Made by a program: the position numbers and the translations under genes. 64,000 bases of DNA from Solirubrobacteraceae bacterium (GTDB taxonomy: Bacteria; Actinomycetota; Thermoleophilia; Solirubrobacterales; Solirubrobacteraceae). Position 1 is the stretch's first letter, and the number at the start of each line of letters is the position of its first letter. Below are positions 24,974 to 52,977 of the stretch, one piece after another. The stretch is from the NCBI GenBank assembly GCA_035484215.1, contig DATHPE010000008.1, positions 27,326 through 91,325 of the forward strand. Reading direction: 5' to 3'. The notes under the pieces are model-generated. The model was not told where the DNA came from and did not search any database. It saw nothing but the letters and a program-made list of their open reading frames with translations.

Positions 24974-25882
24974 TCACACGCCGAGCTCGTCCATATAGCG
25001 ATCCAGGATACGCCGGCCCACCGCGTCGAGCGGGACATCCGGTGCACGCAGGTCCGCGACGGTCAGCACGCCGCGCTTGCACAGGACGTACTTGGCCGTG
25101 GCGTTGTAGTGGTCGATCGTCTGCATCTGGAAGGTGAGCATCGGCAGCAGCGCGCGCATGCGCGCGCGTGCCTCCTCGACGTTCTCGGCGCTCCACAGCT
25201 CGTAGACGTCAACCAGTCGATCGACGAGATCCACGCCCGGAGCGACGCCGCCGGCGCCCTCTTCAAGGCAGTCGAGCAGGTACAGCCCGCCGCTGCCGCA
25301 GAACAGCGTGACGCGCCCGTCGAAGACGGATGACCAGCTGGCGAGACCGCACGCGCCCACCTCCAGCTTGACCGCCGCCAGGTTGGGGATGCTCTCGAGC
25401 AGCTCCTGCACGACCTCCGGGCCGACCTCGACGCTGAGGTACTCGGGGGCGTCCTGGATCATCACGGGCAGGTCTGTGGCGGCGGCGATCTCCTGGAAGT
25501 AGCGCACGAGCGCCGGCCGCGACGCCGGGGCGGTCAGCGGCGGCGGGATCACCACTCCGTCGGCGCCCGCGTCCGCGGCGGCCTTGGCGAGGCGCACGGA
25601 CGTGTGCGTGGCCTCCGTTCCCACGCCGGCGAGCACCGGCACCGCTCCGTTGGTCTCCTGCGCGATCGCGCGCAGCAGCTCGATGCGCTCCTGCGGCGTG
25701 ATGCGGAACACCTCGCCCGCGAGCCCGAAGCAGATGAGCCCGTGAGCGCCGCCGTCGAGAGCGAACCTCGTGATCGCCCGCTGGCCCGCGAGGTCGAGAT
25801 CCCCGGTGTCCGTGAAGGGTGTCGCAAGGCTCGGGAAGATGCCTCGCCACGCGGTGGGATGTTGGGCCTCGGTCATAGACAT
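24974..25882 (-). CDS. DapA/NAL-family class I aldolase or lyase (not a canonical DHDPS)
   Basis: GIFPSLATPF, GLAGE (in place of GTTGE), MIQDAP, VKLE (Schiff-base Lys). Confidence 0.85.
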   Translation of the reverse strand: MSMTEAQHPTAWRGIFPSLATPFTDTGDLDLAGQRAITRFALDGGAHGLICFGLAGEVFRITPQERIELLRAIAQETNGAVPVLAGVGTEATHTSVRLAKAAADAGADGVVIPPPLTAPASRPALVRYFQEIAAATDLPVMIQDAPEYLSVEVGPEVVQELLESIPNLAAVKLEVGACGLASWSSVFDGRVTLFCGSGGLYLLDCLEEGAGGVAPGVDLVDRLVDVYELWSAENVEEARARMRALLPMLTFQMQTIDHYNATAKYVLCKRGVLTVADLRAPDVPLDAVGRRILDRYMDELGV

Positions 25883-26062
25883 ATGATCACCATGTGAGAT
25901 GGTCAGCGCCCAGGCTACACGCTGGCGTCCTGGAAATCAAGGCCCTGGGTCGTGAAATCTGCGATCCACAAGCTGAATGTTGACATCTCTGCATATGACT
26001 ATATATGCTTGTCCACGTTCGAGACAAGCAGTTCGAGCCTCAAGGGGAGACAAGGGGAGATC

Positions 26063-27643
26063 ATGAGAAACAGCAGATACTGCGTGGCGTTCCTGGCAGC
26101 CATCGCGACCGCGCTGCTGGCAGCCGGATGTGGAGGAAGCTCCTCGACGAGCAACTCCGCGGCCAGCACCAGCTCCGAAGCGCCACATCGCGGCGGCAAC
26201 CTGATCTTCGCGCGCGCCTACGAGCCGATCACCTTCGATCCGCTGAAGACCGAGGGCGACAACGGCTCGCTCTGGGACATGATGCAGATCTACGACCAGC
26301 TCGTGGAGTACCGGCCGGGCACGTACAACGTCCAGCCCGGGCTGGCGAGCTCGTGGACGATCTCCCCCAACGGCCTCCGCTACACGTTCAAGCTGCGCAA
26401 AGCGCGCTTCTCCAACGGCGAACCGGTGACCGCGCAGGACGTCAAGTTCTCGGTCGACCGCTTCGCCAGCCCCAAGACCGACGCCGCGTACGCGGAATTC
26501 CTGGCCGCGGAGTTCAAGTCGAGCTCGGCGCCGAACCCCGAAACCTTCGTCATCGAACTGAAGAAGCCCGACGCCGGCTTTCTCGCCGCGCTCGCCGTGC
26601 CCGTCGCCTCGATCGTGCCACAGGCCGTCGTGGAACGCGAGGGCAGCGAATTCAGCAGCCATCCGGTCGGCAGCGGGCCGTTCATGCTCGCCAGCTGGGT
26701 GCGCGGGCAGTACGTCAAGCTCGTGCGCAACCCCTACTACTGGCGCACCGGTCTGCCGTATCTGAACAGCGTCACGATCAACTACGTGCCCAACGACAAC
26801 ACGCGCGTGCTGCAGGTGACCTCCGGACAGGCCGACGTGGCCGAGTCGATCCCCTACACGCAGGTGTCGGAGCTCTCCGCGCAGCCCGACGTGAGCGTGC
26901 AGAGCGCGCCGATCGTCGCGTATGACGCGATCTGGCTGAACGACAGCTACGGCCCTCTCTCGGAAGTCAAGGTTCGCCAAGCGCTCAACTACGCGCTGAA
27001 CAAGCAGGCCATCAACCAGTCCGTCTACGCCGGCAAGGCCGAAGTCAACAACAGCACGCTCGCCCAGACCAAGTTCTGGTCCTCCAAAGTCTCGGCCTAC
27101 GCCTACGACGTGGCGAAGGCCAAGGAACTGATGGCCGCGTCGAAGTACCCCAAGGGCTTCAGCCTGTCACTGAAAGTGCCCGCCGGCGACACCGTCTACG
27201 GCGCCCTGGCGCTGATCGCCAAGGAAGAGTGGAGCCAGATCGGCGTCAACGTCACGATTGAGCCCGTGGAAACCAACACCCTGTTCTCCGAATACTCCTC
27301 CGGTAACTACCAGGCCGCGATCCCGCAGCCGGCGACCACCAGCGACGTGCTCGTGCCCGAGGAGCTCGCGCTCGCCTGGCTGGTCTACACGCCCAGCTAC
27401 CAGAGCTACTTCACGCAGTACAAGGACCCCGCGGTCGAGTCGCTCGTGCTGCAGGCCGACAGGTCCACCAGCGAAGCCGAACAGGCCAAGCTGTGGCCCG
27501 AAATCCAGGAGAAGTCGTTGGCCGACGCTCCCTGGGTGCCCGTCGTGTTCCCGCCGGAGCTGACCGCGGTGCGCAGCAACGTCGCGCACTTCCAGACGCT
27601 GCGGACCGGTTGGTGGGAACTGGCCGAAACCTGGCTTCGATAA
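26063..27643 (+). CDS. ABC transporter substrate-binding lipoprotein (family 5, Dpp/Opp-like)
   Basis: LLAAGC lipobox; YTFKLRKARFSNGEPVTAQDV, PVGSGPF, VRQALNYA; duplicated CAAGGGGAGA RBS at 26041-26060. Confidence 0.93.
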   Translation: MRNSRYCVAFLAAIATALLAAGCGGSSSTSNSAASTSSEAPHRGGNLIFARAYEPITFDPLKTEGDNGSLWDMMQIYDQLVEYRPGTYNVQPGLASSWTISPNGLRYTFKLRKARFSNGEPVTAQDVKFSVDRFASPKTDAAYAEFLAAEFKSSSAPNPETFVIELKKPDAGFLAALAVPVASIVPQAVVEREGSEFSSHPVGSGPFMLASWVRGQYVKLVRNPYYWRTGLPYLNSVTINYVPNDNTRVLQVTSGQADVAESIPYTQVSELSAQPDVSVQSAPIVAYDAIWLNDSYGPLSEVKVRQALNYALNKQAINQSVYAGKAEVNNSTLAQTKFWSSKVSAYAYDVAKAKELMAASKYPKGFSLSLKVPAGDTVYGALALIAKEEWSQIGVNVTIEPVETNTLFSEYSSGNYQAAIPQPATTSDVLVPEELALAWLVYTPSYQSYFTQYKDPAVESLVLQADRSTSEAEQAKLWPEIQEKSLADAPWVPVVFPPELTAVRSNVAHFQTLRTGWWELAETWLR

Positions 27644-27665
27644 GGGTGAATGGGGCGGGCGAGCG

Positions 27666-28613
27666 GTGACGAGCGCGAAAGCCAGCCGGCGTGTCCTTCA
27701 GTCACTGCTGGTCCTGGTCGGCGTCTCGATCGTCTCGTTCGCCCTCATTCACCTAGTGCCCGGAGATCCGGCGCGCATCGCCCTCGGCCCCCGTGCCACG
27801 TTGAGGGCGGTCGACGCCGCACGGCGCACCCTGGGCCTGGACAAGCCGCTCATCACCCAGTACCTGGACTTCGTCACGGGCGCGCTGCGCGGCAACCTCG
27901 GCTACTCGATCCAGCAGCGCGCGAGCGTGAGCAGCCTGCTCGCCAACCGCATCCTGCCGAGCATCCTGCTGGTGCTCTACGCGACCGTGCTCGCTGTCCT
28001 TCTGGCGGTGCCCCTTGGCCTGATCTCAGCGCTGAAGCGCGATCGCCTGCCCGACCACGTGATCAGGATCGTGACCATGGTCACCTTCGCGATGCCGGCG
28101 TTCTGGCTCGGGCTGGTGCTCGTCGAGCTGCTCAGCCTGCGCGCCCACCTGCTGCCGGTCTCCGGGTACGGCGGGAGCTTCGCGGAAAAGCTGAAGGACC
28201 TCCTGCTTCCCGCGCTGACGATCGCCCTCTACCTCGCGCCGATGCTCATCAGGACGCTGCGCAGCAGCGTCATCGACGTGCTCGACAGCGACTTCGTCGA
28301 GGCGGCCCGCGCGCGGGGCCTGTCCGAGCGGCGTGTGGTTCTCAAGCACGTGCTGCGCAACGCGAGCATCGCCACCGTGACCGTGCTCGCCGTCAACCTC
28401 GGCTTCCTCATCAGCGGCACCGTGGTGATCGAGGTCGTGTTCGACATCCCGGGCCTCGGCTCGCTGATAGTGACAGCCGTGGAGTCGCGGGACTTCCCCG
28501 TCGTGCAGGCGCTCACGCTGATCTTCGGCGCGTTCGTCATCGCCGTCAACCTGCTCGCGGATCTCGCCTACGCGGTGATCGATCCACGGGTGCGCCAGGC
28601 ATCGGCGACATGA
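27666..28613 (+). CDS. ABC permease (DppB-like)
   Basis: LVPGDPA, GLDKPLITQY, EAARARGL (EAA motif), IEVVFDIPGLG. Confidence 0.93.
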   Translation: MTSAKASRRVLQSLLVLVGVSIVSFALIHLVPGDPARIALGPRATLRAVDAARRTLGLDKPLITQYLDFVTGALRGNLGYSIQQRASVSSLLANRILPSILLVLYATVLAVLLAVPLGLISALKRDRLPDHVIRIVTMVTFAMPAFWLGLVLVELLSLRAHLLPVSGYGGSFAEKLKDLLLPALTIALYLAPMLIRTLRSSVIDVLDSDFVEAARARGLSERRVVLKHVLRNASIATVTVLAVNLGFLISGTVVIEVVFDIPGLGSLIVTAVESRDFPVVQALTLIFGAFVIAVNLLADLAYAVIDPRVRQASAT

Positions 28614-29500
28614 GCCAGGCCGCTCGCCAGGAGATCGTGCTCGCGGGCGCGCGCGCCCTGCGCCGTCAGGTCGACCGCCAGAACCGCTGGGCCGACCTGA
28701 CGCTATGGGCGGGTGCTGGCATCCTCGCGGTGCTCGTCCTCGCCGCCGTCTTCGCCAGCGTGATCGCGCCCTACCAGCCGGACACGCAACACCTCACCGA
28801 AGGCTTCCTGCACCCATCCGGCGCGCACCTGTTCGGGACCGACGCCTTCGGCCGCGACATCTTCTCGCGCGCTCTGTACGGCCTGCGCGTGGACCTGCTG
28901 CTCGGCATCATCGCGACATACGTGCCGCTCGTGGTCGGGATGGCGCTCGGAGCGGTGGCGGGCTACTACCGCGGCTGGCCCGAGACGGTGATCATGCGTC
29001 TCACCGACGTCACCATCGCGCTGCCGTTCATCGTGCTGATCCTCGCGATCGTCGCGATCGTCGGGCCTGGTCTCACCGGTGTCTACATCGGTGAGATCGC
29101 CGTCTCGTGGGCGCTGTACGCGCGGCTCACGCGGGCCGAGATGCTCGTCCTGCGCGAGAAGCAGTTCATCGTCGCCGCGCAGGCGCTCGGCTACTCCACG
29201 CCACGCATCCTGTTCAAGCACGCCCTGCCCCACCTGGTCCGCCCCAACCTCGTGTTCTCGATGGCGGACATCGTGCTCAACATCCTCGTGCTGGCTTCGC
29301 TCTCGTTCCTTGGAGTGGGCGTTCAACCGCCGACCCCCGAGCTCGGGGCGATGATCGCCGAAGGCGGGCAGTACCTGCTCAGCGCGTGGTGGATAGCGAC
29401 GCTGCCCGGCCTGGTGCTCGTGCTCCTGGGCTCCGGCTTCTCGCTGATCGGCGACGCGCTGGCCGACCGCTTCGGGCAGCGCCTGGAGCTCCCGCGTTGA
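28610..29500 (+). CDS. ABC permease (DppC-like)
   Basis: HLFGTDAFGRDIFSR, FIVAAQALG, LSFLGVGVQPPTPELG; ATGA overlap. Confidence 0.93.
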   Translation: MSQAARQEIVLAGARALRRQVDRQNRWADLTLWAGAGILAVLVLAAVFASVIAPYQPDTQHLTEGFLHPSGAHLFGTDAFGRDIFSRALYGLRVDLLLGIIATYVPLVVGMALGAVAGYYRGWPETVIMRLTDVTIALPFIVLILAIVAIVGPGLTGVYIGEIAVSWALYARLTRAEMLVLREKQFIVAAQALGYSTPRILFKHALPHLVRPNLVFSMADIVLNILVLASLSFLGVGVQPPTPELGAMIAEGGQYLLSAWWIATLPGLVLVLLGSGFSLIGDALADRFGQRLELPR

Positions 29501-30537
29501 GCGCGCTCGGGCACGGCGGAGCCGCCCGGCCGGAGGCGGAGCGCGCCGAGGTCGACAACACGCTGGAGCTGCGCCGCCTGACGGTCGCGTTTCCCACACG
29601 CGACGGCCTGGCGGTCGCCGTCAACGACGTGTCGCTGAGCATCGCGCCCGGTCAGGTCACGGGCATCGTGGGCGAGTCCGGCTCGGGCAAGACGATGATC
29701 TGCCGCGCCATCCTCGGCCTCGTTCCCCGGCCCGGGGCGATCCTGGCCGGCGAGATCCTCTGGCGCGGGCGCGATCTCGCCAGCGCCAGCCCCAGCGGCC
29801 TGCGCCGCGTGCGCGGGCGCGAGGTCGCCATGATCTTCCAGGACCCCTCGAGCGCGCTGGACCCGCTGTTCACGATCGGCGACCAGATAGCCGAGCCGCT
29901 GCGAGCCCATCGCGGGCTCTCCCGCTCGGCGGCCGAGACGGAAGCGATCGAGCTGCTCGGGCGCGTGGGCATCCCATCCCCGCGCGAGCGCGTCAACGCA
30001 TACCCCCACCAGCTCAGCGGCGGCATGCGCCAGCGCGCGATGATCGCGATCGCGATCTCGTGCAAGCCCGCCCTCGTGCTGGCCGACGAGCCCACCACCA
30101 GCCTCGACGTGACGATCCAGGATCAGATCCTCGGCCTGCTGGCCGAGTTGCGCGACGAGTACGGCATGAGCATGGTGCTCGTGTCCCACGACCTGGGGGT
30201 CATCGCCCAGAACGCCGACACGGTGGCGGTGATGTACAGCGGCTCGATCGTCGAGACCGCGCCGACCGCCAAGATCTTCTCCGCCACGCGCCACCCCTAC
30301 ACCGCGGCCTTGATTCAGGCGCTGCCCACGATCCACGTGCAGGAGCGGCGCAGCGGGCTGGAGCCGATCCCCGGGCAACCGCCGTCGCTCGACGACCTGC
30401 CGCCCGGCTGCCCCTTCGGGCCCCGCTGCCAATACGCCACCGACGCCTGCCAGGCGGTGGACATGACGCGTGTCGCCGTGGGCGACGGGCACGACAGCGC
30501 CTGCCCGTTCGCCGAGACCGTGATGGTGGCATCGTGA
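29497..30537 (+). CDS. ABC ATPase (DppD-like)
   Basis: GESGSGKT, LSGGMRQR, LADEPTT, HPYT, PGCPFGPRC; TTG start inferred from the overlap. Confidence 0.92.
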   Translation: MSALGHGGAARPEAERAEVDNTLELRRLTVAFPTRDGLAVAVNDVSLSIAPGQVTGIVGESGSGKTMICRAILGLVPRPGAILAGEILWRGRDLASASPSGLRRVRGREVAMIFQDPSSALDPLFTIGDQIAEPLRAHRGLSRSAAETEAIELLGRVGIPSPRERVNAYPHQLSGGMRQRAMIAIAISCKPALVLADEPTTSLDVTIQDQILGLLAELRDEYGMSMVLVSHDLGVIAQNADTVAVMYSGSIVETAPTAKIFSATRHPYTAALIQALPTIHVQERRSGLEPIPGQPPSLDDLPPGCPFGPRCQYATDACQAVDMTRVAVGDGHDSACPFAETVMVAS

Positions 30538-31597
30538 GCGCGCCGGCAGACGCGCGGTCCGCCGGCGCGCGGCCCGACGCCGCGCCGATCCTCGAGGTCG
30601 AGGGGCTGCGCAAGAGCTTCGCCGTGTCACGCTCCCCGCTGCAGTGGGCGCGCCGGGAGCCGGCGCGCGCGCTCGTGGCCGTGGACGGGGTCTCGCTGGA
30701 GCTGCGTCGCGGCGAAGTGCTGGGCGTGGTGGGCGAGTCGGGCTGCGGCAAGACCACGCTCGCGCGCTGCGTGCTGCGCCTGCTCGAGCCCGACGAGGGC
30801 AGCATCCGCCTCGAGGGCAGCGAGCTGCTCACGCTCGGCCGCGCGGAGCTCAGATCGATGCGCAAGCGCGTGCAGATGGTCTTCCAGGATCCGTACGCCT
30901 CGCTCAACCCCCGCATGACCATCGGCGCGGCGATCGGCGAAGCAGCGCGCGTGCACCGACTCGTGGATCGCGCCGGCGAGCGGCGATACGTCGAGGAGCT
31001 GCTCGAGCTCGTCGGGCTGCCGGCCTCCGCGTACGGGCGTGCGCCCAAGGCGCTCAGCGGAGGCCAGCGCCAGCGCGCGGTCATCGCGCGCGCGCTCGCG
31101 CTGAAACCGGACGTGCTGATCGCCGACGAGGCGGTCTCGGCTCTGGACGTCTCGATCCAAGCCCAGATCCTCGGTCTGCTGCGCAGGCTCACCGACGAGC
31201 TCGGGCTGGCCACGCTGTTCATCGCCCATCAGCTCGCGGTGATCGCGCAGATATCCGACTCGGTGGCCGTCATGTACCTCGGCCAGATCGTCGAGCAGGG
31301 CCCGACGGCGGCGGTGTTCAGCGCCCCGCGCCACCCCTACACCCGCGCGTTGCTGGACGCCCACCCGGAGCCCGACCCGACCAGACGTCGAGACGCCCCC
31401 GCCGTGGCCGGCGACATCCCCTCGCCGCTGGACATGCCGAGCGGCTGCCGCTTCCACACGCGTTGCGCGTACGCGCAGGAGCGCTGCATGCAGGCCCAGC
31501 CGCTGACCGACTTCGGCGACGGTCGCCGCGCCCGCTGCGTGGTGCTTCCGCTCAGCGCCGGCGCGGCGGGCGAAGACGAGATCGAAGCTGCGCAGCC

Positions 31598-31601
<4 letters not shown>
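30534..31601 (+). CDS. ABC ATPase (DppF-like)
   Basis: GESGCGKT, LSGGQRQR, IADEAVSALD, HPYT, SGCRFHTRC. Confidence 0.92.
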
Positions 31602-32422
<821 letters not shown>

Positions 32423-32439
32423 CGCAGCGTCCGCGCCCT

Positions 32440-33438
32440 TCAGGCGCCCGGCGGGCGCAGCACGATCTTGGTCGCCTCATCGGGCCGCTCGACGAGCGTC
32501 TGAAACGCCGCCTGCCCGTCGTCGAGCGGGCGCTCGGTGATCCAGTGCCCGTAGGGCACGGCGCCGGCTCGCAGCAGCTCCAGGGCGGCATCGAAGTCGG
32601 CCTGGGTGTACGCGTAGGAGCACTGCAGTCGCAGCTCCTTGGCGACCGCCGCGTTGACGGCGAGCTCGCTGACCGCGCTGTGCAGGCCGAGCAGCACCAC
32701 GCAGCCGCCCGCGTCACAGCGCTCGATCGCCGTGCCGCGAGAGCCGCTGGTGCCGGCGGCGTCGACCACGTGGTCGAACAGCATGCCCTCCAGGCCCCCG
32801 TCATCCGGCGCCAGCGCGGCGTGCGCGCCGCTGGCGAGCGCCGCCTGTCGCCGTGCCCGCACCGGGTCGACCGCCGTGATGCGCGCCGCGCCGGCGACCC
32901 GCAGGACGGCGACGACGCTCAGCCCGATCGCCCCCGCGCCGAGCACGGCCACGTGACGGCCGAGCGTCGCCGGCAGCAGCGCGGCGACGTGAACCGCGTT
33001 GGCGATCGGCTCGGCCATCGCGCCCGCGAGCTCGTCGAGCGAGCCGAGCGCCGTGAGGCCCGTGTACGGCACCGCCACGAGCTCGGCGAAGCCGCCATCC
33101 ACCTGCATCCCCAGCAGCACGCGCTCGGGGCACACGTTGGAGCGCCCCGATCTGCACTGCTCGCAGCGGCCGCAGGGGTGCAGCGGGTTGACCGCCACGC
33201 GCTCGCCCAGCAGCTCCTTGGGAGCGGCCGAGCCGAGCGCCTCGACGACACCCGCCAGCTCGTGGCCGAAGATCCGCCCCGGCGGCCGGCGCGTGCTGTG
33301 CCCGGTGAAGCTCGTCAGCTCCGAGCCGCAGATGCCCGCCGCCGCCACCCGCACGAGCACCTCGTCCGCACGTGGCTCCGGACACGGCCGGCTCTCGGCG
33401 GCCATCTCGCCTGTGCCCTTGAAGACAAGTGCTTGCAT
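32440..33438 (-). CDS. Zn-dependent alcohol/polyol dehydrogenase (MDR family)
   Basis: GICGSE, GHE, CGRCEQC..SNVC structural Zn site, GAGAIG. Confidence 0.9.
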   Translation of the reverse strand: MQALVFKGTGEMAAESRPCPEPRADEVLVRVAAAGICGSELTSFTGHSTRRPPGRIFGHELAGVVEALGSAAPKELLGERVAVNPLHPCGRCEQCRSGRSNVCPERVLLGMQVDGGFAELVAVPYTGLTALGSLDELAGAMAEPIANAVHVAALLPATLGRHVAVLGAGAIGLSVVAVLRVAGAARITAVDPVRARRQAALASGAHAALAPDDGGLEGMLFDHVVDAAGTSGSRGTAIERCDAGGCVVLLGLHSAVSELAVNAAVAKELRLQCSYAYTQADFDAALELLRAGAVPYGHWITERPLDDGQAAFQTLVERPDEATKIVLRPPGA

Positions 33439-36458: not shown

Positions 36459-38209
36459 CGCCCTCCCAGGGTGCGACGGATGCGCCGGCCGCGCTCGATC
36501 CGGTCACGCTGACGGTGCTCGACAACTACCTCACGAGCACCTGCCGCGACATGGGCGTGACGATGATGACCACCGCCTACTCGCCGATCTTCAACGAGTC
36601 GCTGGACTTCTCGTGCGTGATCTTCGACCCCCGCGGCCAGATGCTCGCGCAGGCGGAGTTCTGCCCGTCGCAGATCGGCACGATCAAGTTCACCGTCGAG
36701 TGGACGATCGCCGAGCTCGGCCTGGAGGCGTTCGAGCAGGGCGACGTGGTGATCCACAACGACCCCTACCGGGGATCCGGTCACGTGCCCGAGCACATGC
36801 TGCTGAGGCCCGTCTTCTGGGAGGGCGAGCTGGTCGCGTTCGTGGCCAACGTGGCCCACATGTCCGAGGTGGGAGCCAAGACGCCCGGGGGCCTGTCGGG
36901 GGACGCGACGGAGATCTTCCAGGAGGGACTGCTGATCCCGCCGGTCAAGATCAAGCGCCGCGGCGAGGACGTCCCCGACATCTGGAAGATGGTGCTGGCC
37001 AATCACCGCACGCCGCGCGTCACCTACGGCGACTTCCACGCGATGATGGCGTCACTGGAGCTCGCCGAGCGCCGCCTGCACGCGCTGATCGCCGAGCAGG
37101 GCCTCGACACGTTCACGGCCGGCGGAGATGAGCTGATCGCGATCGCCGAGCGGCGCATGCGCGCCGAGATCGAGGAGATACCCGATGGCGTCTACAGGTT
37201 CGAAGACGCGATCGAGGACGACGGGATCGGCGAGGGCTCCTTCCCGATGAAGCTCGAGCTGACGATCGACGGCAGCGAGGTGATCGCCGACTTCACCGGC
37301 TCGGCGCGCCAGGCCGTCGGACCCGTCAACGCCATCTACGCGGTCACCGCATCGGCGATCTACAACGCCTTCCTGCACCTCACCGACCCGACGATCCCTC
37401 GCAACGAGGGCTGCTACCGGCCGTTCACGATCGTCGCCCCGCGCGGCACGATCGTCAACTGCGAGTTCCCCGCGCCCGTCGCCGGCGGCAACACCGAGAC
37501 GAGCCCGCGGATCACCGACATGGTCTTCGGCGCGCTCGCCGACGCGATCCCCGAGCGCGTGGTCGCCTCCTGCGGCGGCACCTCCTCGCCCTTCCTGTTC
37601 GGCGGACGCGACGCCCGCAGTGGCGAGCCGTACGCCCACTTCCACTTCGAGGGCGTCGGCTGGGGCGGGCGCCACGACGCCGACGGCAACGACATGATCG
37701 TGACGATCAACGGCAACTGCCGCAACACGCCCGTCGAGGTCTTCGAGACCCGCTATCCGGCGTTTCGGATCGAGTCCTATCGCCTGACCACTGACTCGGG
37801 CGGCCCGGGCACCTTCCGCGGCGGCCTCGGTGGCGAGCGGATCTTCACGGTCACGGTCGCGGAGGTCACCGTGGGCGCGCTGCTGAACCGCATGCGCGCC
37901 GATCCGTGGGGCACCCTCGGCGGCGCGGCCGGCGCCCGTGGCGGGCTGTGGGTCCGTCGCGCCGGCAACGGTGAGTGGCGCACGTTCGTGGAGGAGTTCG
38001 GCACGGCGTCCCCGTCGAAGTTCTCGGGAGTCACCCTGCACGACGGCGACCAGGTGAAGATCGTGATGCCTGGCGGCGGCGGCTACGGCGACCCGCGCAA
38101 GCGCGATCGCGAGCGCGTCGAGCGCGACATCCACGAGGGCTTCGTCGGCATCGAGGCCGCGCGCGAGCACTACGGCTACGAGCTGGAGCGGGACGGCGCG
38201 GATGGGTGA
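36455..38209 (+). CDS. Hydantoinase/oxoprolinase family subunit B
   Basis: YSPIFNESLDFS, NDPY.G.GH.PE, HMSEVG, EIFQEG, NTPVEVFE, DSGGPG.FRGG, GGGGYGDP. Confidence 0.93.
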   Translation: MTPSQGATDAPAALDPVTLTVLDNYLTSTCRDMGVTMMTTAYSPIFNESLDFSCVIFDPRGQMLAQAEFCPSQIGTIKFTVEWTIAELGLEAFEQGDVVIHNDPYRGSGHVPEHMLLRPVFWEGELVAFVANVAHMSEVGAKTPGGLSGDATEIFQEGLLIPPVKIKRRGEDVPDIWKMVLANHRTPRVTYGDFHAMMASLELAERRLHALIAEQGLDTFTAGGDELIAIAERRMRAEIEEIPDGVYRFEDAIEDDGIGEGSFPMKLELTIDGSEVIADFTGSARQAVGPVNAIYAVTASAIYNAFLHLTDPTIPRNEGCYRPFTIVAPRGTIVNCEFPAPVAGGNTETSPRITDMVFGALADAIPERVVASCGGTSSPFLFGGRDARSGEPYAHFHFEGVGWGGRHDADGNDMIVTINGNCRNTPVEVFETRYPAFRIESYRLTTDSGGPGTFRGGLGGERIFTVTVAEVTVGALLNRMRADPWGTLGGAAGARGGLWVRRAGNGEWRTFVEEFGTASPSKFSGVTLHDGDQVKIVMPGGGGYGDPRKRDRERVERDIHEGFVGIEAAREHYGYELERDGADG

Positions 38210-38402
38210 GTGGCGCGACAGCGAGGTCACCTACCTGCAGCCCTACCGGGTGGTGTGCGCGCTATGTGGACAGCTCGTCCCGGGGCGCTACTGGCTGGAG
38301 CTGGCGGCCGGCGAGCAAAGGATCTTCTGCAACCCCGACCACGCGGCCAAGTACGAGAGCTACTGGCTGCCCCGTCACGGACAACCGGAGGCGTCACGAT
38401 GA
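38202..38402 (+). CDS. Small putative metal-binding protein (CxxC-x20-C-x3-H, TRASH-like)
   Basis: 66 aa; overlaps subunit B by 8 nt and RidA by ATGA, i.e. translationally coupled on both sides. Confidence 0.7.
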   Translation: MGEWRDSEVTYLQPYRVVCALCGQLVPGRYWLELAAGEQRIFCNPDHAAKYESYWLPRHGQPEASR

Positions 38403-38776
38403 GCATGCGTCCGATCACCACAACCGGCGCCCCCGCGCCCTCCGGCGGCTACTCGCAGGGGATCGTGGCGGAGCCATTCCTGTTCCTCTCCGGTCAGGGC
38501 CCCTTCGACGAGGCGGGCAAGCTCGTGGACAGCTCGATCGAGGCGCAGGTTCGCCAGGTGTTCGCGAACCTCCAGGCCGTGGCCGAGGCCGCGGGCACCT
38601 CGCTCACGCGAGCGCTGCGCGTCGGCGTGTACCTCAGCGACCTGGAGCACTTCGACGCGATGGACCGTGTCTACCGCGAGATCTTCAGCGAGCCACGCCC
38701 GGCGCGCACCACGATCCAGACCAACATCGCCGGCTTTGACGTCGAGGCCGACGCGGTAGTGCTGCTTGACCGCTGA
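38399..38776 (+). CDS. RidA/YjgF/UK114 family imine deaminase
   Basis: APAPSGGYSQG, LFLSGQGP, VFANL, VYL.D..F..MD.VY, RPARTTI, VEADAV. Confidence 0.9.
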   Translation: MSMRPITTTGAPAPSGGYSQGIVAEPFLFLSGQGPFDEAGKLVDSSIEAQVRQVFANLQAVAEAAGTSLTRALRVGVYLSDLEHFDAMDRVYREIFSEPRPARTTIQTNIAGFDVEADAVVLLDR

Positions 38777-39839
38777 GCCGCTCCCACCCGGTGGCGCAGA
38801 CACGCCATACGCGAGCGTCGACCTCGACGCCGTCACGCGCAACGTCGAGCGGATGCAGGCGTACTGCGACAGCCACGGCCTCGCGTGCCGGCCGCACGTC
38901 AAGACCCACAGGCTGCCCGCGATCGCCCACCAGCAGATCCGCGCAGGCGCCGTGGGGATCACCTGCCAGAAGCTCAGCGAAGCGGCGATCATGGTGGCGG
39001 CCGGCATCGAGGACGTGCTCATCGCCTACCCCGTGCTCGGCGAGGCCAAGCTCGAGCGCCTCTGCGGGCTGGCGGCGCTCGCGCGGATCTCGATCGCCGC
39101 CGACTCAGCGGAGATCGCGGTCGGCGTCTCCCACGCGCTCGCGCGCAGAGGATTGGAGCTGGACTTCCTGATCGAGTGCGACACCGGGCTGGGCCGCACG
39201 GGCGTGCAGAGCCCGGAGCAGGCGCTGGAGCTCGCGACCCTCGTCGACGGCCTGCCGGGGCTGCGCTTCGCCGGGCTGATGACCTACCCGACCAGTCCGC
39301 GCACCGAGCCGTTCTTCGCCGACGCGCGCGAGCGGATCGAGCGGGCGGGCCTGGAGGTGCGCACGCTCAGCGGGGGCGGCACGGAGACCGCCCTGCATAC
39401 GCACGAGCTGGCCAACCTCACGGAGTTGCGCACGGGGACCTACGTGTTCGGCGATCGCGCGTGCATCGCCAACGGCAGCGTCGCACTCGAAGACTGCGCG
39501 CTGCGCGTCCACGCCACCGTGGTCAGCCGCCCGACGCCTCGCCGGGCGATCCTCGACGCCGGCTCCAAGGTGCTCACCAAAGACCCGGTGGAGGCGGCCG
39601 GTGCGCACGGTTACGGACTGCTGCTCGAGCGTCCCGGAGCGCTGATCGACGAGCTCTTCGAGGAGCACGCCCGCGTGGAGCTCTCCAGCGAGGAAGCCCC
39701 GCTGGAGCTGGGCGAGGTCGTGAGCATCGTGCCCAACCACGCCTGCGGCACGACGTACATGCAGCCGCGGGTGCTCGTCCACCGCGGCGGGGAGGCCGCC
39801 GGCTGGTGGCCGGTCACCGGCCGCGGAGCAGTGCGATGA
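38766..39839 (+). CDS. Fold-type III PLP enzyme (D-threonine aldolase / D-serine dehydratase-like)
   Basis: TPYASVD, RPHVKTH, ECDTGLGRTG, SGGGT, ELRTGTYVFGD, LDAGSK, PNHAC. Confidence 0.88.
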   Translation: MTAEPLPPGGADTPYASVDLDAVTRNVERMQAYCDSHGLACRPHVKTHRLPAIAHQQIRAGAVGITCQKLSEAAIMVAAGIEDVLIAYPVLGEAKLERLCGLAALARISIAADSAEIAVGVSHALARRGLELDFLIECDTGLGRTGVQSPEQALELATLVDGLPGLRFAGLMTYPTSPRTEPFFADARERIERAGLEVRTLSGGGTETALHTHELANLTELRTGTYVFGDRACIANGSVALEDCALRVHATVVSRPTPRRAILDAGSKVLTKDPVEAAGAHGYGLLLERPGALIDELFEEHARVELSSEEAPLELGEVVSIVPNHACGTTYMQPRVLVHRGGEAAGWWPVTGRGAVR

Positions 39840-40507
39840 CGTCACCGGCCGGGCTGATGGCGCTGCGCCCGGGGAAGATCGTCGCCATCGGGCTGAACTA
39901 CCTCGACCACATCCGCGAGGCGAAGCTGGAGGCGCCCAAGCGCCCGCTGGTGTTCGCCAAGTTCACGACGAGCGTGATCGGCGACGGCGAGGAGATCGTG
40001 ATCGACCGCGAGCTGACCGCCCGCGTCGACTGGGAGGTCGAGCTGGCGGTCGTGATCGGCACGCGCATGTCGCGCGTGGGTGTGGGGGATGCGCTCGATC
40101 ATGTGTTCGGCTACACGGTCGCCAACGACGTGTCCGCCCGCGATCTGCAGTTCTCCGACGGGCAGTGGGTGCGCGCCAAGAGCCTCGACACGTTCTGCCC
40201 GCTCGGCCCGGTGGTCGTGACCGCCGATGAGATCCCCGACCCCCAGCGGCTGGCGCTGCGCACACGGGTCAACGGCGAGACGGTGCAGGACTCGAGCACC
40301 TCCGAGATGCTGTTCGGGGTGGCTGAGCTGCTGTCGTTCTGCTCGCACAGCTTTGTGTTGGAGCCCGGCGACGTCGTGCTGACGGGCACGCCGTGGGGGT
40401 GCGGAGAGTTCATGTCGCCGCCTCGCTCGCTGCAGGCCGGCGACGTCGTCGAAGTCGAGGTCGAGGGGATCGGCACGCTGCGCAACCCGGTCGTCGAGCT
40501 TGGCTGA
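39836..40507 (+). CDS. Fumarylacetoacetate hydrolase family protein
   Basis: KIVAIGLNY, DWEVEL, ANDVSARD, KSLDTFCPLGP, GDVVLTGTP. Confidence 0.92.
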   Translation: MTSPAGLMALRPGKIVAIGLNYLDHIREAKLEAPKRPLVFAKFTTSVIGDGEEIVIDRELTARVDWEVELAVVIGTRMSRVGVGDALDHVFGYTVANDVSARDLQFSDGQWVRAKSLDTFCPLGPVVVTADEIPDPQRLALRTRVNGETVQDSSTSEMLFGVAELLSFCSHSFVLEPGDVVLTGTPWGCGEFMSPPRSLQAGDVVEVEVEGIGTLRNPVVELG

Positions 40508-41877
40508 TGAGCGAGACGCTCGAGCGCGCCCTGCGCCGCATCCTCGGTGATGACGGGGTCGGCTCGGTAGAGGACGCGCGCTTTCATCGCGACGCCACCG
40601 AGGCGCAGGGTCTCAGCGGGATCCCGAGCGCGGTCGCGCTGCCCGGCAGCAGCACGGACGTCGCGGCGGTCGTGCGCTGGTGCTACGAGCACGACGTCGG
40701 GATCGTGCCGCGCGGAGGCGGGACCGGCTTCGCCGGCGGCAGCGTGGCGGTGGACGGCGGCGTGGTCGTCGACCTGAAACGGATGAGCCGCGTGCTCGCC
40801 TTCGACCCGCCACTGTGGCGCATGCACGTCGAGGCCGGGCTGCGCACGAGCGAGGTGCACCGCCTGGCGCGCGAGAACGGGCTGCTGTTCCCCCCCGACC
40901 CGGGCGCCGCCGAGCAGTCGCAGATCGGCGGAAACGTCGCCACCAACGCCGGCGGGCCGCACGCCTTCAAGTACGGCGTCACCGGCCATTGGGTGACCGG
41001 GCTGGAGGCGGTCATGGCGCCGGGTGAGGTGATCGTTGTTGGTGGCGCGATCCGCAAGGACGTCGCGGGCTATGACCTCAAGAGCCTGCTCGTCGGCTCC
41101 GAGGGCACGCTCGGGATCATCACGTCGGTGTGGCTGCGGCTGACGCCCGCCCCGGCTGCGCGCGCGCCGGTGATCGCTGCCTATGGGAGCGCGGCGGAGG
41201 GGTGTGAGGCGATCGAGGCGGTGCTCGCCAACGGGATCGTGCCCGCCGCGCTCGAGTTCCTCGACGCCGGCGCCTTGGACGCCGCCCGCGGGGCGTATCC
41301 CTTCGAGCTGGCTGCGGATGCTCGTTTCATGGTCGTGGCTGAGGTCGACGGCTCAACGGCTGAGACCGATGCGTGCGTCGCCGAGCTGCTGGAGGTGCTC
41401 GCGGAGCGCGCGCTGCACGTCGCCTCGCCGGCGAGCGCGCGGGAGATCGCGGCGCTGTGGCGCTGGCGCGACGGGCTGTCGCTGGCGGTCGAGGCCAGGC
41501 GGGGCGGCAAGATCAGCGAGGACATCGTCGTGCCGCTCGATCGGCTGCGGGATGCGATCGAGGCGACGCTCGAGATCGCCCGCGAGCACGAGCTCGAGGC
41601 ATGCAGCTGGGGCCATGCCGGGGACGGAAACCTGCACTCCACGTTCATGGTCGATCCGCGTGATAGTGACGAGGTGAGCCGTGCGCGCGCAGCCGCGCAT
41701 CAGCTCTACGCGGTCGCGGTTGGGTACGGCGGATCGATCTCCGGCGAGCACGGGCTCGGGTGGGTCAGGCGGGGTCAGCTTGTGGCGCAGTGCAGTCCCG
41801 CGACGCTGGCGGTGCACCACGCGGTCAAGCGGTCGTTCGATCCCAAGGGGTTGATGAACCCGGGGAAGAAGTTGTAG
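40507..41877 (+). CDS. FAD-linked oxidoreductase (GlcD / D-2-hydroxyacid dehydrogenase-like)
   Basis: PRGGGTG..GG, FPPDPGA, IGGNVATNAGG, GSEGTLGII, GHAGDGNLH, SGEHGLG. Confidence 0.9.
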   Translation: MSETLERALRRILGDDGVGSVEDARFHRDATEAQGLSGIPSAVALPGSSTDVAAVVRWCYEHDVGIVPRGGGTGFAGGSVAVDGGVVVDLKRMSRVLAFDPPLWRMHVEAGLRTSEVHRLARENGLLFPPDPGAAEQSQIGGNVATNAGGPHAFKYGVTGHWVTGLEAVMAPGEVIVVGGAIRKDVAGYDLKSLLVGSEGTLGIITSVWLRLTPAPAARAPVIAAYGSAAEGCEAIEAVLANGIVPAALEFLDAGALDAARGAYPFELAADARFMVVAEVDGSTAETDACVAELLEVLAERALHVASPASAREIAALWRWRDGLSLAVEARRGGKISEDIVVPLDRLRDAIEATLEIAREHELEACSWGHAGDGNLHSTFMVDPRDSDEVSRARAAAHQLYAVAVGYGGSISGEHGLGWVRRGQLVAQCSPATLAVHHAVKRSFDPKGLMNPGKKL

Positions 41878-52971: not shown

Positions 52972-52977
52972 ATGACG

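Follow-up and report, generated by a model that had tools for sequence, protein, structure and literature searches.

Does the run of catabolic genes at this Solirubrobacteraceae locus encode one pathway and, if so, on what kind of substrate would it act? The locus lies in a 64,000-nucleotide stretch of DNA (the window, to which all coordinates refer), for which a first-pass annotation had proposed a self-contained route from a cyclic amide or amino-sugar-acid-like compound, through a hydroxy-amino acid and a 2-keto acid, to pyruvate.

Gene content of the locus

Gene calls based on codon-position GC analysis and Pfam/NCBIfam scans recovered all gene families claimed for positions 24974–41877, tightly packed and in places overlapping. 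A DHDPS-family (DapA-like) gene on the minus strand (24974–25882; Pfam DHDPS, 142 bits) is separated by a divergent control region (25883–26062) from a plus-strand importer operon, which comprises a family 5 solute-binding protein of the peptide/nickel/opine type (SBP_bac_5, 26063–27643; 312 bits), two ABC permeases (27666–28613 and 28610–29500; BPD_transp_1, OppC_N) and two ABC ATPases (29497–30537 and 30534–31601; ABC_tran with the oligo_HPY C-terminal region). The four permease and ATPase genes are joined by start/stop overlaps of 4–11 nt. Genes for an SDR (31598–32386; adh_short_C2, 242 bits) and a Zn-ADH (32440–33447; ADH_N and ADH_zinc_N) follow on the minus strand. On the plus strand are a GntR/FCD regulator of the FadR subfamily (33631–34395; Pfam GntR and FCD), hyuA (34428–36458; Hydant_A_N, Hydantoinase_A and Hydant_A_C), hyuB (36455–38209; Hydantoinase_B, 591 bits), a conserved ORF for a Cys-rich protein of 66 residues (38202–38402), ridA (38399–38776; Ribonuc_L-PSP, 90 bits), a fold-III PLP enzyme gene (38766–39839; Ala_racemase_N and D-ser_dehydrat), an FAH-family gene of the FAA_hydrolase type (39836–40507, inside a longer ORF at 38885–40507) and a glcD-like gene (40507–41877; FAD_binding_4 and FAD-oxidase_C). 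From hyuA to glcD these genes are likewise chained through 4–11 nt overlaps, the small ORF overlapping the hyuB stop at one end and the ridA start at the other.

Two genes were absent from the earlier gene list, namely the 66-residue ORF and a PEP-mutase/isocitrate-lyase-superfamily gene (41932–42756, plus strand; PEP_mutase, 239 bits) that starts 55 nt past glcD. The latter scores 75 bits against the prpB model (cutoff 354) and has no homologue among the related loci, being found in the window only; it may be part of the cluster. Contigs from a soil metagenome run carry this sequence without differences at ∼14x word depth, and soil metatranscriptome contigs of 85–93% identity cover the hyuA–hyuB junction, hyuB, the SDR and FAH, which is a weak sign of cluster expression.

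Conservation of the cluster

The operon hyuA–hyuB–small ORF–ridA–PLP enzyme recurs in ∼30 Thermoleophilia MAG species, usually with the SDR, DapA-like and GntR/FCD genes alongside. The core was found in 5–6 of the 6 Solirubrobacteraceae loci; of 23 further Thermoleophilia-type loci, 21 have the small ORF, 20 HyuB, 18 the SDR, 17 the DapA-like protein, 17 GntR and 16 the PLP enzyme, which is also represented by 3 fragments. The complete hyuA–hyuB–small–ridA–PLP order is seen in each of the five contexts for which the PLP enzyme served as anchor. A rearranged variant occurs in 12 Acidimicrobiia loci, five of which have another fold-III PLP enzyme, one that bears an SHPC motif. Co-occurrence of this kind is far beyond chance, and the genes form a coherent catabolic cluster of uncultured soil Actinomycetota. 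The term self-contained does not suit the cluster throughout: hyuAB–small–ridA–PLP, SDR, DapA-like and GntR alone are conserved across orders, FAH, GlcD and Zn-ADH are restricted to Solirubrobacteraceae, and the Opp-type importer is also lineage-specific.

It could be argued that the locus encodes no single pathway, and that the lactamase operon merely happens to lie beside a peptide importer and genes for sugar-acid enzymes. Accessory genes and transporter types do vary among relatives, and synteny between close relatives can be inherited without a functional link. However, the core functions stay together in Acidimicrobiia in another gene order and with a non-orthologous fold-III PLP enzyme, the block is inverted as a unit, its genes overlap start to stop and a single regulator sits between the two arms, and we regard mere adjacency as quite improbable.

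Downstream pyruvate dehydrogenase (PDH) genes had also been connected with the pathway. They are indeed co-oriented, lying 3′ of the DapA-like gene after an 18 nt gap on the minus strand (aceE 22325–24955, aceF 20994–22337, lpd 19477–20997; the aceF model score, 551.1 bits, is just short of the 552.1-bit cutoff), but the functional tie is weak. In sister genomes the block from DapA to GlcD is inverted as one unit relative to the PDH flank, so that PDH adjoins its opposite end, after glcD, in three loci (L001, L002 and L052), and in three others (L051, L056 and L087) PDH is missing at that position. These genes form a complete housekeeping-type aceE–aceF–lpd operon, which is probably a neighbour of the cluster rather than a dedicated part of it.

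A predicted ATP-dependent lactamase with a third small protein

HyuA is predicted to be the alpha subunit of an ATP-dependent lactamase. It contains the ATP motifs DTGGTFTD, DMGGT and GAQPGP (as defined in PMC8453981), and its scores against solved structures fall from N-methylhydantoinase (463 bits) through caprolactamase alpha (368 bits; 6YRA_A, which bears the PDB title '5-oxoprolinase') to acetophenone carboxylase (303 bits) and acetone carboxylase (231 bits). HyuB, the predicted metal-dependent, hydrolytic beta subunit, scores 306 bits against N-methylhydantoinase, 260 against CapB and 109 and 68 against the carboxylases, and the CapB metal ligands Asp41/His99/Asp102/His124 (PMC8453981) align with its Asp51/His110/Glu113/His135. 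The far higher scores against N-methylhydantoinase and caprolactamase, together with the retained ATP motifs and metal ligands, argue for a lactamase rather than a carboxylase. The same two-subunit architecture, ATP motifs and metal site are shared by caprolactamase CapAB, P. putida OplAB, N-methylhydantoinase and 5-oxoprolinase (PMC8453981). HyuA reaches 513 bits with the CapA model, but the scores of 513 and 330 bits are far short of the equivalog cutoffs of 1000. Specific NCBIfam models were in fact all below cutoff, with generic exceptions in the window SDR and a Chloroflexota ArgE/DapE deacylase.

Unlike these lactamases, the window cluster adds a conserved third component, the 66-residue zinc-ribbon-like protein (CxxC...C), whose ORF was found in 30 loci, 8 more, of Acidimicrobiia type, having a related form. 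No family was matched in Pfam, NCBIfam or PADLOC, and a weak L24e-type zinc-ribbon match was obtained (E = 0.004). Its gene lies 3′ of hyuB in Shinella and 5′ of hyuA in Halalkalicoccus, and in the A. vitis plasmid pAtS4c it is fused to the HyuB N-terminus; the protein is a candidate third (gamma-like) lactamase subunit.

Both plasmid systems resemble the window in HyuB (47–49% identity), the small Cys-rich protein and an accompanying regulator and ABC importer. The Shinella sumterensis plasmid (CP132317) reads GntR–hyuA–hyuB–small–gabT–SSADH; its three-part homologue, 49% identical, thus adjoins gabT and succinate-semialdehyde dehydrogenase, an arrangement whose annotation suggests a layout from lactam to omega-amino acid. 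The A. vitis cluster (NC_011984) encodes a CUT2 ABC system, an SDR, gluconokinase, HyuA, the small::HyuB fusion, an aminotransferase and LacI, and so shares SDR and sugar-acid genes with the window. On functions read from annotation, both plasmids carry an aminotransferase in place of RidA and the fold-III dehydratase.

A small Cys-rich zinc third subunit has so far been described for carboxylases only (PMC5214803), which raises the alternative that the three proteins form an alpha-beta-gamma ketone carboxylase of the acetone/acetophenone type. We consider this very unlikely: the scores favour the hydrolase branch clearly, as those of HyuB show; the small protein matched no Pfam family and hence not the acetone-carboxylase gamma family; the Shinella homologue lies among GABA-catabolic genes; and RidA and a D-amino-acid dehydratase downstream need an amine product.

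Ordinary utilisation of 5-oxoproline (pyroglutamate) is suggested by the family name, and 5-oxoprolinases are indeed members, but in NCBIfam and PDB it is lactamases and hydantoinases that come closest, glutamate-specific enzymes are missing, and glutamate use has no place for a D-specific beta-hydroxy-amino-acid dehydratase, a DapA-like protein or an SDR. This possibility is extremely remote, and our literature searches found no other described pathway onto which the cluster maps.

Since among solved structures N-methylhydantoinase comes closest to each subunit, HyuAB might instead open a 5-substituted hydantoin to an N-carbamoyl-D-amino acid, with decarbamoylation and deamination to follow. 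In Chloroflexota, in some Gaiellales and in Halalkalicoccus, HyuAB does have M20-family hydrolases as neighbours. However, neither a carbamoylase nor an M20 gene is present in the window or in the conserved Thermoleophilia core, and the M20 protein fits the ArgE/DapE deacylase subfamily without matching any model of a carbamoylase, making a hydantoin route improbable.

Predicted deamination by the fold-III PLP enzyme and RidA

The first-pass annotation had left beta-elimination and aldol cleavage side by side for the step after ring opening. Metal ligands distinguish the two, His-x-Cys being found in D-serine and D-threo-3-hydroxyaspartate dehydratases and His-x-Asp in D-threonine aldolases (PMC4401734). 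The PNHACG motif of the window enzyme aligns with PNHACA of D-threo-3-hydroxyaspartate dehydratase (3WQC), where aldolases have SHVDP or GHCDP, and His-x-Cys is kept in 26/26 orthologues and in 3 fragments. Furthermore, AxDTA His193 is opposite a gap in the alignment. The His-x-Cys metal site and the lack of a His193 equivalent point to beta-elimination and against cleavage of the D-threonine-aldolase type, even though the overall score is higher for D-threonine aldolases (181 bits) than for the dehydratases (117 bits). The window enzyme is predicted to be a metal-dependent D-2-amino-3-hydroxy-acid dehydratase (ammonia-lyase), sharing fold III, the His/Cys metal site and the PNHAC motif with 3WQC and the eukaryotic zinc D-serine dehydratase 3ANU. 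This is consistent with the adjoining RidA, which scores 99 bits against TIGR00004 (cutoff 106) and has the C-terminal Arg (PARTT) that marks the RidA subfamily.

For the later steps of the proposed pathway, the nearest system with experimental proof is the ong cluster of Pseudoalteromonas prydzensis for oxidised chitin, encoding the deacetylase OngB, the fold-III PLP deaminase OngC, the RidA protein OngD and KdgK; OngC/OngD convert D-glucosaminate to the 2-keto-3-deoxy acid KDG and ammonia (PMC9537276). Compared by description rather than by sequence, the two share the PLP deaminase–RidA pair in a regulated operon (with a repressor in ong). The window lacks counterparts of the deacetylase, the hexosaminidase, the SSS transporter and KDG kinase; the predicted lactamase, driven by ATP, takes the place of the deacetylase, and the DapA-like protein and SDR that of the kinase route. 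It likewise differs from caprolactam and valerolactam routes, which transaminate an omega-amino acid, whereas the window enzymes would deaminate by PLP-dependent beta-elimination.

The ong precedent allows another reading, in which the cluster degrades oxidised amino sugars much as the ong pathway degrades N-acetyl-D-glucosaminate, and HyuAB is a rescue enzyme. An amino-sugar acid, or the intermediate left after its deacylation, would close by itself to a dead-end lactam, and HyuAB would reopen it for the PLP deaminase, RidA and the keto-deoxy-acid enzymes. Prokaryotic 5-oxoprolinase reportedly clears a spontaneously formed lactam in this manner, polysaccharide-deacetylase-like genes occur in Gaiellales and Halalkalicoccus contexts, and the orthologous Chloroflexota HyuAB (HyuA 59–65%, HyuB 75–78% identical) adjoin an ArgE/DapE deacylase and a DgaE-family (D-glucosaminate-6-P ammonia-lyase-like) enzyme. 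However, deacylase, hexosaminidase and KDG kinase are all missing from the window, D-glucosaminate itself is unable to lactamise, and hyuAB is the first and best-conserved operon pair, suggestive of a step on the main line rather than of side repair. Such a repair role is unlikely, if the one we would take most seriously after main-line lactam opening.

DapA-like protein and accessory enzymes

Cleavage to pyruvate by a DapA-like lyase, as formerly suggested, is not the best reading. The DapA-like protein scores 101 bits against NCBIfam dapA (cutoff 206), and its motifs IQDAP and K-L-E place Gln at the position of the catalytic Tyr in an alignment with 3FKK, 3DZ1, YagE and DHDPS. This Gln-for-Tyr and K-x-E signature, present in 32/32 orthologues, is that of L-2-keto-3-deoxyarabonate (L-KDA) dehydratase (3FKK, also 7C0C), which shares QDAP and K-x-E with it; without the catalytic Tyr, aldol cleavage to pyruvate is doubtful. 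The protein is predicted to be a Schiff-base enzyme of the DHDPS/NAL family, L-KDA-dehydratase-like and not a true DapA, an assignment drawn from two motif positions at about 27–30% identity, with scores below cutoff.

The SDR belongs by score to NCBIfam subfamily PRK07231 'glucose 1-dehydrogenase' (263 bits, cutoff 215), and its orthologues adjoin the core in Gaiellales (57–65% identity) and Acidimicrobiia (53–58%). Three predicted accessory enzymes complete the set. The Zn-ADH, specific to Solirubrobacteraceae, is closest to YdjJ-like, IolM, Tdh and IdnD models (all below cutoff) and is probably a polyol/sugar-acid-type dehydrogenase. The putative FAH-family hydrolase/decarboxylase is shortened at its N-terminus (223 residues against 272–274 in sister genomes), the gene having a ∼200 bp deletion relative to L001, L002 and L087; its closest model is 2,4-didehydro-3-deoxy-L-rhamnonate hydrolase (218 bits, cutoff 500) and its structural matches are HpcE (214 bits) and 8GSR (183 bits). 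The glcD-like gene, seen in close relatives only, would encode an FAD-linked D-2-hydroxy-acid dehydrogenase (TIGR00387 glcD 342 bits, cutoff 568).

In pairing an SDR with an FAH-family protein, the window is similar to the dehydrogenase/hydrolase branch of non-phosphorylative pentonate and 6-deoxyhexonate routes, from which it differs in having no sugar dehydrogenase, lactonase and aldonate dehydratase set. The chemistry of keto-deoxy-acid 4-dehydrogenase and FAH-type diketo hydrolase is presumed to be transferable to this cluster.

Importer and regulation

The best PDB match of the binding protein is AapF (7KZ8, 238 bits), and the agropinic-acid binder AgaA (6HLX, 168 bits) is the fourth best. 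The agropinic acid locus of octopine Ti plasmids, for an opine lactam, combines an Opp-like importer with HyuA/HyuB-like proteins for which opening of an N-substituted pyroglutamate lactam derived from sugar has been proposed, and AgaA places it among the solved relatives of the window binding protein; to our knowledge it has other downstream enzymes and no RidA–fold-III dehydratase pair. Among relatives of the window the importer class varies between Opp-type, CUT1 and CUT2, a sugar-type CUT1 or CUT2 system standing in place of the Opp-type importer.

The regulator gene lies directly 5′ of hyuA in Thermoleophilia loci, and its closest NCBIfam models are NanR, LldR, PdhR, GlcC and ExuR, all below cutoff. 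In the divergent control region a conserved, operator-like inverted repeat (ACCAT-N5-ATGGT, 25889–25903) and a promoter-like TTGACA-N18-TATGCT (25980–26009) were found; the footprint is kept in the window and in L001, L002, L051 and L052, and partly in L056. A motif common to both promoter regions does not exceed chance expectation (∼0.25 shared 9-mers expected, estimated from region lengths).

Proposed pathway and substrate

Several lines of evidence point to a polyhydroxylated lactam as the substrate. The sugar-acid character already suggested for it finds support in several independent hints: the importer swaps, the Chloroflexota neighbours and the nearest enzyme models, those of the Zn-ADH, SDR, FAH, DapA-like protein and regulator all being sugar or sugar-acid enzymes. 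As a simple 2-amino-aldonic acid cannot lactamise, the ring must include a second carboxyl or amine group or an additional carbonyl.

On balance, we judge it probable that the locus forms a single catabolic regulon whose substrate is a cyclic amide, small, polar and probably polyhydroxylated (sugar-acid-like), with every step predicted from sequence. The Opp/Dpp-type system would import the cyclic amide, and its ring would be opened through ATP-dependent activation by HyuA and metal-dependent hydrolysis by HyuB, probably with the small protein. The product, or a close derivative, would be a D-2-amino-3-hydroxy acid, from which the PLP enzyme would remove water across C2–C3, and RidA would hydrolyse the resulting enamine/imine to a 2-keto-3-deoxy acid and ammonium. 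The originally proposed order from lactam opening to hydroxy-amino acid to 2-keto acid agrees with the predicted functions. The DapA-like enzyme is more likely to perform a second, L-KDA-type dehydration of the keto-deoxy acid, to a 2,5-dioxo acid, than an aldol cleavage. The SDR would contribute a redox step, which may come before or after ring opening, with either the ring-bearing substrate or the keto-deoxy acid as its target. In Solirubrobacteraceae the polyol-type Zn-ADH could add a further redox step, FAH could split a 2,4-diketo acid into pyruvate and a hydroxy acid, and the GlcD-like enzyme could oxidise the latter. The GntR/FCD protein would control both divergent promoter regions. 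Given that accessory genes vary by lineage, the downstream route may vary likewise; the carbon handled by the cluster most likely ends in central metabolism.

Organization of the cluster

The window has a G+C content of ∼70% and shadow ORFs crowd its raw ORF lists; a single gene per stretch was settled by codon-position GC together with Pfam and NCBIfam scans. Each gene family named in the first-pass annotation was recovered in place. Two pairs of divergently oriented transcription units make up the cluster. In the first, a DapA-like gene (24974-25882, minus strand) diverges from a five-gene Opp-type importer (26063-31601, plus strand). In the second, the SDR (31598-32386) and Zn-ADH (32440-33447) genes on the minus strand diverge from a plus-strand unit comprising the GntR/FCD regulator (33631-34395), hyuA (34428-36458), hyuB (36455-38209), a small ORF, ridA (38399-38776), the gene for a fold-III PLP enzyme (38766-39839), FAH (39836-40507) and glcD (40507-41877). 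Overlaps of 4-11 nt join most adjacent genes inside each unit. Two genes had been overlooked: the small ORF, which is Cys-rich, encodes 66 aa and lies between hyuB and ridA (38202-38402), and a PEP-mutase/ICL-superfamily gene starting 55 nt past glcD.

The regulator belongs to the FadR subfamily of GntR proteins, and the models closest to it are regulators of hydroxy-acid and sugar-acid metabolism. Phylogenetic footprinting picked out a conserved palindromic repeat, ACCAT-N5-ATGGT, in the DapA/importer intergenic region, where a promoter-like site is also present. A shared operator for both divergent promoter regions was rejected, as they have one 9-mer in common where ∼0.25 is expected by estimate, which is not above chance. 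A terminator scan gave none above the shuffled background, and metatranscriptome mapping returned only relatives' contigs at 85-93% identity, too weak for operon definition.

Contigs of a soil metagenome cover the window sequence without differences, and the nearest genomes are Solirubrobacteraceae MAGs. The FAH gene, which is concealed towards the 3' end of a longer, spurious ORF, lacks ∼200 bp (at 39780-39920) relative to the sister loci L001, L002 and L087. This deletion spans the PLP-FAH spacer and the first ∼55 codons, leaving a protein of 223 aa, compared with 272-274 aa in the sister loci, whose ATG overlaps the stop codon of the PLP enzyme gene. The shortened protein matches FAHD1/YcgM-type enzymes in length and may have retained activity.

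A predicted ATP-dependent lactamase and its probable small partner

HyuA has Hydant_A_N and Hydantoinase_A domains by Pfam and carries all three ASKHA-type ATP motifs (DTGGTFTD at 8, DMGGT at 284 and GAQPGP at 348), corresponding to the DxGGTxxD, DxGGT and GxxPGP motifs defined for caprolactamase (PMC8453981). The four metal ligands of the caprolactamase beta subunit CapB align with Asp51, His110, Glu113 (replacing Asp102) and His135 of HyuB, three being identical and one a conservative change. Both subunits score far higher against hydrolases (N-methylhydantoinase and caprolactamase; 463 and 368 bits for HyuA, 306 and 260 for HyuB) than against acetophenone and acetone carboxylases (303 and 231 bits for HyuA, 109 and 68 for HyuB). 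Against the CapAB equivalogs NF050156 and NF050157 they reach 513 and 330 bits, about half and a third of the curated cutoff of 1000; caprolactamase proper was thus rejected, leaving the window proteins as its relatives. By these comparisons HyuAB is a hydrolase-branch member of the hydantoinase/oxoprolinase family with a predicted substrate of its own, and its predicted activity is ATP-dependent hydrolysis of a cyclic amide.

Conservation of the small ORF extends to 30 loci, Acidimicrobiia having a related form, and its invariant pattern is G-W..YL..CxxCG..W..G..FC. It matched no family in Pfam, NCBIfam or PADLOC, and a profile search of the PDB gave only weak zinc-ribbon matches (L24e-type). 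On a Shinella plasmid the gene for the small protein comes after hyuB, and in Halalkalicoccus it comes before hyuA. On Agrobacterium vitis plasmid pAtS4c the small protein forms an N-terminal fusion with HyuB, which is good evidence for physical association of the two. The lactamase probably has three subunits. Hydantoinase-type enzymes have been described as having two subunits only, without a gamma orthologue (PMC5214803), and a small zinc-ribbon partner runs against this view of the hydrolase branch; for that reason the small ORF is in itself a minor new point.

Predicted deamination by the PLP enzyme and RidA

The PLP enzyme contains Ala_racemase_N and D-ser_dehydrat domains with the PLP lysine in a conserved RPHVKT motif, and is overall nearest to D-threonine aldolases. 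Its metal site, PNHACG, resembles the PNHACA of D-threo-3-hydroxyaspartate dehydratase, whereas the aldolases have SHVDP or GHCDP; this His/Cys versus His/Asp difference between dehydratase and aldolase metal sites is stated in the D-threonine aldolase structure paper. The His-x-Cys is kept in 26 of 26 orthologues and in all three fragments, and the position aligned with His193, the proposed base of the aldolases, is a gap. RidA has the Ribonuc_L-PSP fold and the C-terminal Arg (PARTT), and scores slightly below the TIGR00004 cutoff (99.3 versus 106.25).

Either beta-elimination or aldol cleavage, with clean-up by RidA, had been proposed for this step. The His-x-Cys site, the gap at His193 and a ridA gene translationally coupled upstream support beta-elimination, while the absence of His-x-Asp argues against aldol cleavage. 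Assignment as D-threonine aldolase or BhcC was rejected on the same residues and on a BhcC model score of 176 bits against a cutoff of 690. The PLP enzyme is thus predicted to release ammonia from a D-2-amino-3-hydroxy acid. An experimentally proven analogue exists in the ong pathway for oxidised chitin, in which OngC, a fold-III PLP enzyme, deaminates D-glucosaminate to the keto-deoxy acid KDG and also takes D-Ser and D-Thr (PMC9537276); OngC and the RidA protein OngD correspond to the window pair. This pair is, however, the only part that the two systems share: none of the ong companions (OngB-type D-aminoacylase, GH20 hexosaminidase, KDG kinase) was found in the 19-43 kb section of the window.

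The DapA-like enzyme and the remaining catabolic genes

The DapA-like protein had been expected to cleave a keto-deoxy acid as a lyase; its active-site residues would fit dehydration better. The Schiff-base Lys is retained, but Gln (IQDAP) replaces the catalytic Tyr of DHDPS and pyruvate aldolases, K-L-E stands in place of their K-D, and GLAGE in place of the GTTGE-type Thr motif. The protein thus lacks the Y(N/D)xP motif and GTTGE Thr of true DapA and NAL-type pyruvate aldolases, and the dapA model gives 101 bits against a cutoff of 206. Both the Gln-for-Tyr exchange and K-x-E are shared with L-2-keto-3-deoxyarabonate dehydratase (3FKK; VQDAP and K-I-E) and with the uncharacterised 3DZ1 (LQDYP and K-H-E). 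All 32 orthologues keep the Lys and carry Gln instead of the Tyr (Q-[D/E]-A-[P/S]), with the Lys motif K-[L/P/A]-E. We infer that these two positions mark an L-KDA-dehydratase-like subgroup of the DHDPS family to which the DapA-like protein would belong. On the strength of these two residues, and at low identity, we prefer dehydration of a 2-keto-3-deoxy acid to aldol cleavage as the probable reaction type.

For the SDR, Zn-ADH, FAH and GlcD-like proteins the nearest models are sugar or sugar-acid enzymes, and their roles are putative. The SDR falls above cutoff in the glucose 1-dehydrogenase subfamily. Below cutoff are the matches of Zn-ADH to IolM, IdnD and Tdh, of FAH to diketo-deoxy-rhamnonate hydrolase and of the GlcD-like protein to GlcD (342 bits versus 568). 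The cluster contains no GlcE or GlcF gene and so does not encode a glycolate oxidase of the GlcDEF kind; the GlcD-like protein is, by homology, a stand-alone D-2-hydroxy-acid dehydrogenase-type protein.

Conservation of the cluster

A scan for HyuA in one genome per species yielded 78 loci, in all of which genes were called, their products clustered and occurrences counted by lineage. In Solirubrobacteraceae five to six of the six loci retain everything between the DapA-like and PLP genes, both included, while FAH is present in four and GlcD in three. A further 23 Thermoleophilia-type loci, mostly from Gaiellales and with HyuA identities of 65-72%, mostly have the SDR, DapA-like, GntR, hyuA, hyuB, small ORF, ridA and PLP genes together with a second Rid-family gene; they are without FAH, GlcD and Zn-ADH, and their transporter is often of another kind. 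Look-ups anchored on five PLP homologues (61-86% identity) found hyuA-hyuB-small-ridA-PLP in all five. Acidimicrobiia have the same functions in another gene order, and the Thermoleophilia PLP enzyme is replaced by a distinct one, also of fold III (Pfam D-ser_dehydrat, SHPC motif). This replacement is the strongest sign that the link between the genes is functional rather than inherited. Failure of the genes to co-occur elsewhere, which would have refuted a pathway, is not what these loci show.

PLP orthologues alone form >100 clusters at 90% identity, mostly from JGI metagenome records. An exact-sequence look-up of the window PLP protein gave no record, and the only metagenome runs containing the window sequence were from soil and peat.

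Identities for HyuB are 80-84% between Solirubrobacteraceae and Gaiellales and 75-78% with its Chloroflexota counterparts, while HyuA in the same loci reaches just 58-75%. Such unusual conservation suggests that the hydrolytic subunit is either strongly constrained or has been transferred horizontally.

In Gaiellales (L079/L080, L004-L015) and Acidimicrobiia (L040-L048) the core sits inside a broader group of conserved genes, encoding E1alpha/E1beta with E2 or a lipoyl protein, an abhydrolase-cupin fusion, a PhyH-family dioxygenase, polysaccharide-deacetylase-like, NicX-like and RraA-like proteins, and a fused HyuAB paralogue, with an amidohydrolase and a dimethylformamidase-beta-like protein additionally in Acidimicrobiia. 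The window carries none of these extra genes.

The PDH operon and flanking regions

The DapA-like gene is followed by a complete aceE-aceF-lpd operon and a second GntR/FCD gene. AceF scores 551.1 against a cutoff of 552.1 for the long-form PDH E2 equivalog, and the operon with its PdhR-like gene looks like the organism's main PDH. The co-oriented position reported earlier holds, but a link to the pathway is weak. The neighbour of PDH is the DapA-like gene in the window, glcD in three sister genomes (L001, L002 and L052) and other genes in L051, L056 and L087, so that the adjacency is best read as a flank. The switch of this flank from one end to the other in L001, L002 and L052 indicates that the block from DapA to GlcD has been inverted between fixed flanks and acts as a unit; block and PDH operon together occupy 19477-41877 in the window. 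Proteobacterial E1alpha/beta genes beside fused HyuAB (L062, L064) were rejected as support for a PDH link, belonging to a housekeeping pdhA-pdhB-pdhC-lpdA-lipA operon. In the Gaiellales and Acidimicrobiia versions a dedicated E1alpha/beta-lipoyl-abhydrolase set lies nearby, and a thiamine-dependent final step may exist.

Elsewhere in the window, a low-GC island (6036-14877; 63-64% GC versus ∼71% around it) matches the Mza defence system, with an MzaB-like ATPase (6036-7412), an MzaC-like Z1-domain protein (7789-10113), an MzaD-like DUF4420 protein (10161-11132), and a second MzaB-like fragment (11558-12403); the island also encodes a C5 cytosine methyltransferase (12949-14877). A second lower-GC stretch directly past the cluster (43051-47896; 63-66% GC) may be foreign DNA; it holds three large ORFs of weak coding signal, of 366 aa (sub-threshold TetR_C match only), 719 aa (no family) and 531 aa (ThyX (Thy1) in the C-terminal third only), and none matched in PADLOC. 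Past this island, the genes at 47952-60228 include those for a cytochrome P450 (47952-49331), MFS and NicO nickel/cobalt transporters, an aldehyde dehydrogenase (51188-52666), a ferredoxin-like protein of the nitrite/sulfite-reductase kind and a double tetrapyrrole methylase (55942-57513). Of these, the aldehyde dehydrogenase, 9 kb off, is a candidate that could serve a 2,5-dioxo-acid product.

The substrate

A polyhydroxylated molecule about the size of a monosaccharide is suggested by several independent hints, although we hold a sugar-like lactam only tentatively, at somewhat below an even chance. In relatives, the Opp-type importer is swapped for CUT1 or CUT2 sugar-type systems, and the redox and keto-acid enzymes of the cluster are similar to those acting on sugar acids. 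Gene contexts in Chloroflexota and on the A. vitis plasmid, given below, are further hints. Because lactam formation is not open to a simple 2-amino-aldonic acid, ring closure must draw on an additional carboxyl, an additional amine or an added carbonyl.

Chloroflexota loci (L016-L053, e.g. L021 and L038; HyuA 59-65% and HyuB 75-78% identical to the window proteins) have a fixed context of an ArgE/DapE-family deacylase, a CUT1 sugar-type ABC importer, hyuA, hyuB and a DgaE-family (D-glucosaminate-6-P ammonia-lyase-like) PLP enzyme, which looks like a parallel, non-orthologous answer to the same chemistry. On A. vitis pAtS4c (NC_011984, 88-100 kb; L082), a CUT2 ABC importer, SDR, gluconokinase, hyuA, the small::hyuB fusion, an aminotransferase and a LacI regulator suggest catabolism from aldonolactam through amino-aldonate and keto-aldonate to gluconate; we know of no description of this cluster. 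In Shinella the same three-part lactamase adjoins gabT and SSADH, which suggests that the family handles simple lactams too and that specificity varies. The Halalkalicoccus context differs and did not help to name the substrate.

Among named compounds we weighed 3-hydroxy- and 3,4-dihydroxy-5-oxoproline, D-cycloserine, hydroxyornithine lactams, polyhydroxyalkyl hydantoins, glucaro-delta-lactam-type compounds and muramic delta-lactam, none of which is preferable from sequence alone. An unlikely but far-reaching reading is that the cluster would be the first catabolic route for a common soil sugar-derived lactam, combining a previously unrecognised alpha-beta-gamma ATP-dependent lactamase with D-glucosaminate-type PLP/RidA deamination. 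Candidate lactams would then include C1-oxidised muramic delta-lactam originating in spore cortex, an iminosugar-type aldaro- or aldono-lactam, or a diamino-sugar-acid lactam, and the zinc-ribbon protein, HyuB-fused in some bacteria, would fill the role of the ketone-carboxylase gamma subunit.

Implications

The locus had been proposed to encode a self-contained catabolic pathway for a cyclic amide or an amino-sugar-acid-like substrate. The overall logic of this proposal stands, with several step assignments and the PDH link revised; the general mechanism, which we infer at every step, appears to us somewhat more likely than not. Its first half is related to caprolactamase and N-methylhydantoinase, and its second half would operate similarly to the OngC/OngD step and to non-phosphorylative keto-deoxy-acid routes. 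It does not map wholly onto a known pathway: the window lacks the defining sets of the ong, 5-oxoproline, hydantoin utilisation, caprolactam, glycolate oxidase and true DapA systems. A literature search on the gene combination and related pathways found no description of the cluster, and one on AapF was uninformative. What is new is the gene combination, with a predicted new entry reaction into deamination of the D-amino-sugar-acid type.

So wide a conservation among soil-dwelling Thermoleophilia implies that these bacteria repeatedly meet a natural substrate containing nitrogen, so far unnamed, and the recurrence of the cluster in many soil-derived metagenome assemblies likewise points to an unnamed soil metabolite. 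Its identity could provide an ATP-driven lactamase for polar lactams, which would be of biocatalytic value. It would also carry the newly described chemistry of D-glucosaminate deamination to a new entry reaction, and would give functions to several large 'hydantoinase/oxoprolinase', 'D-serine deaminase-like' and 'DapA-like' groups that are now annotated by family only.
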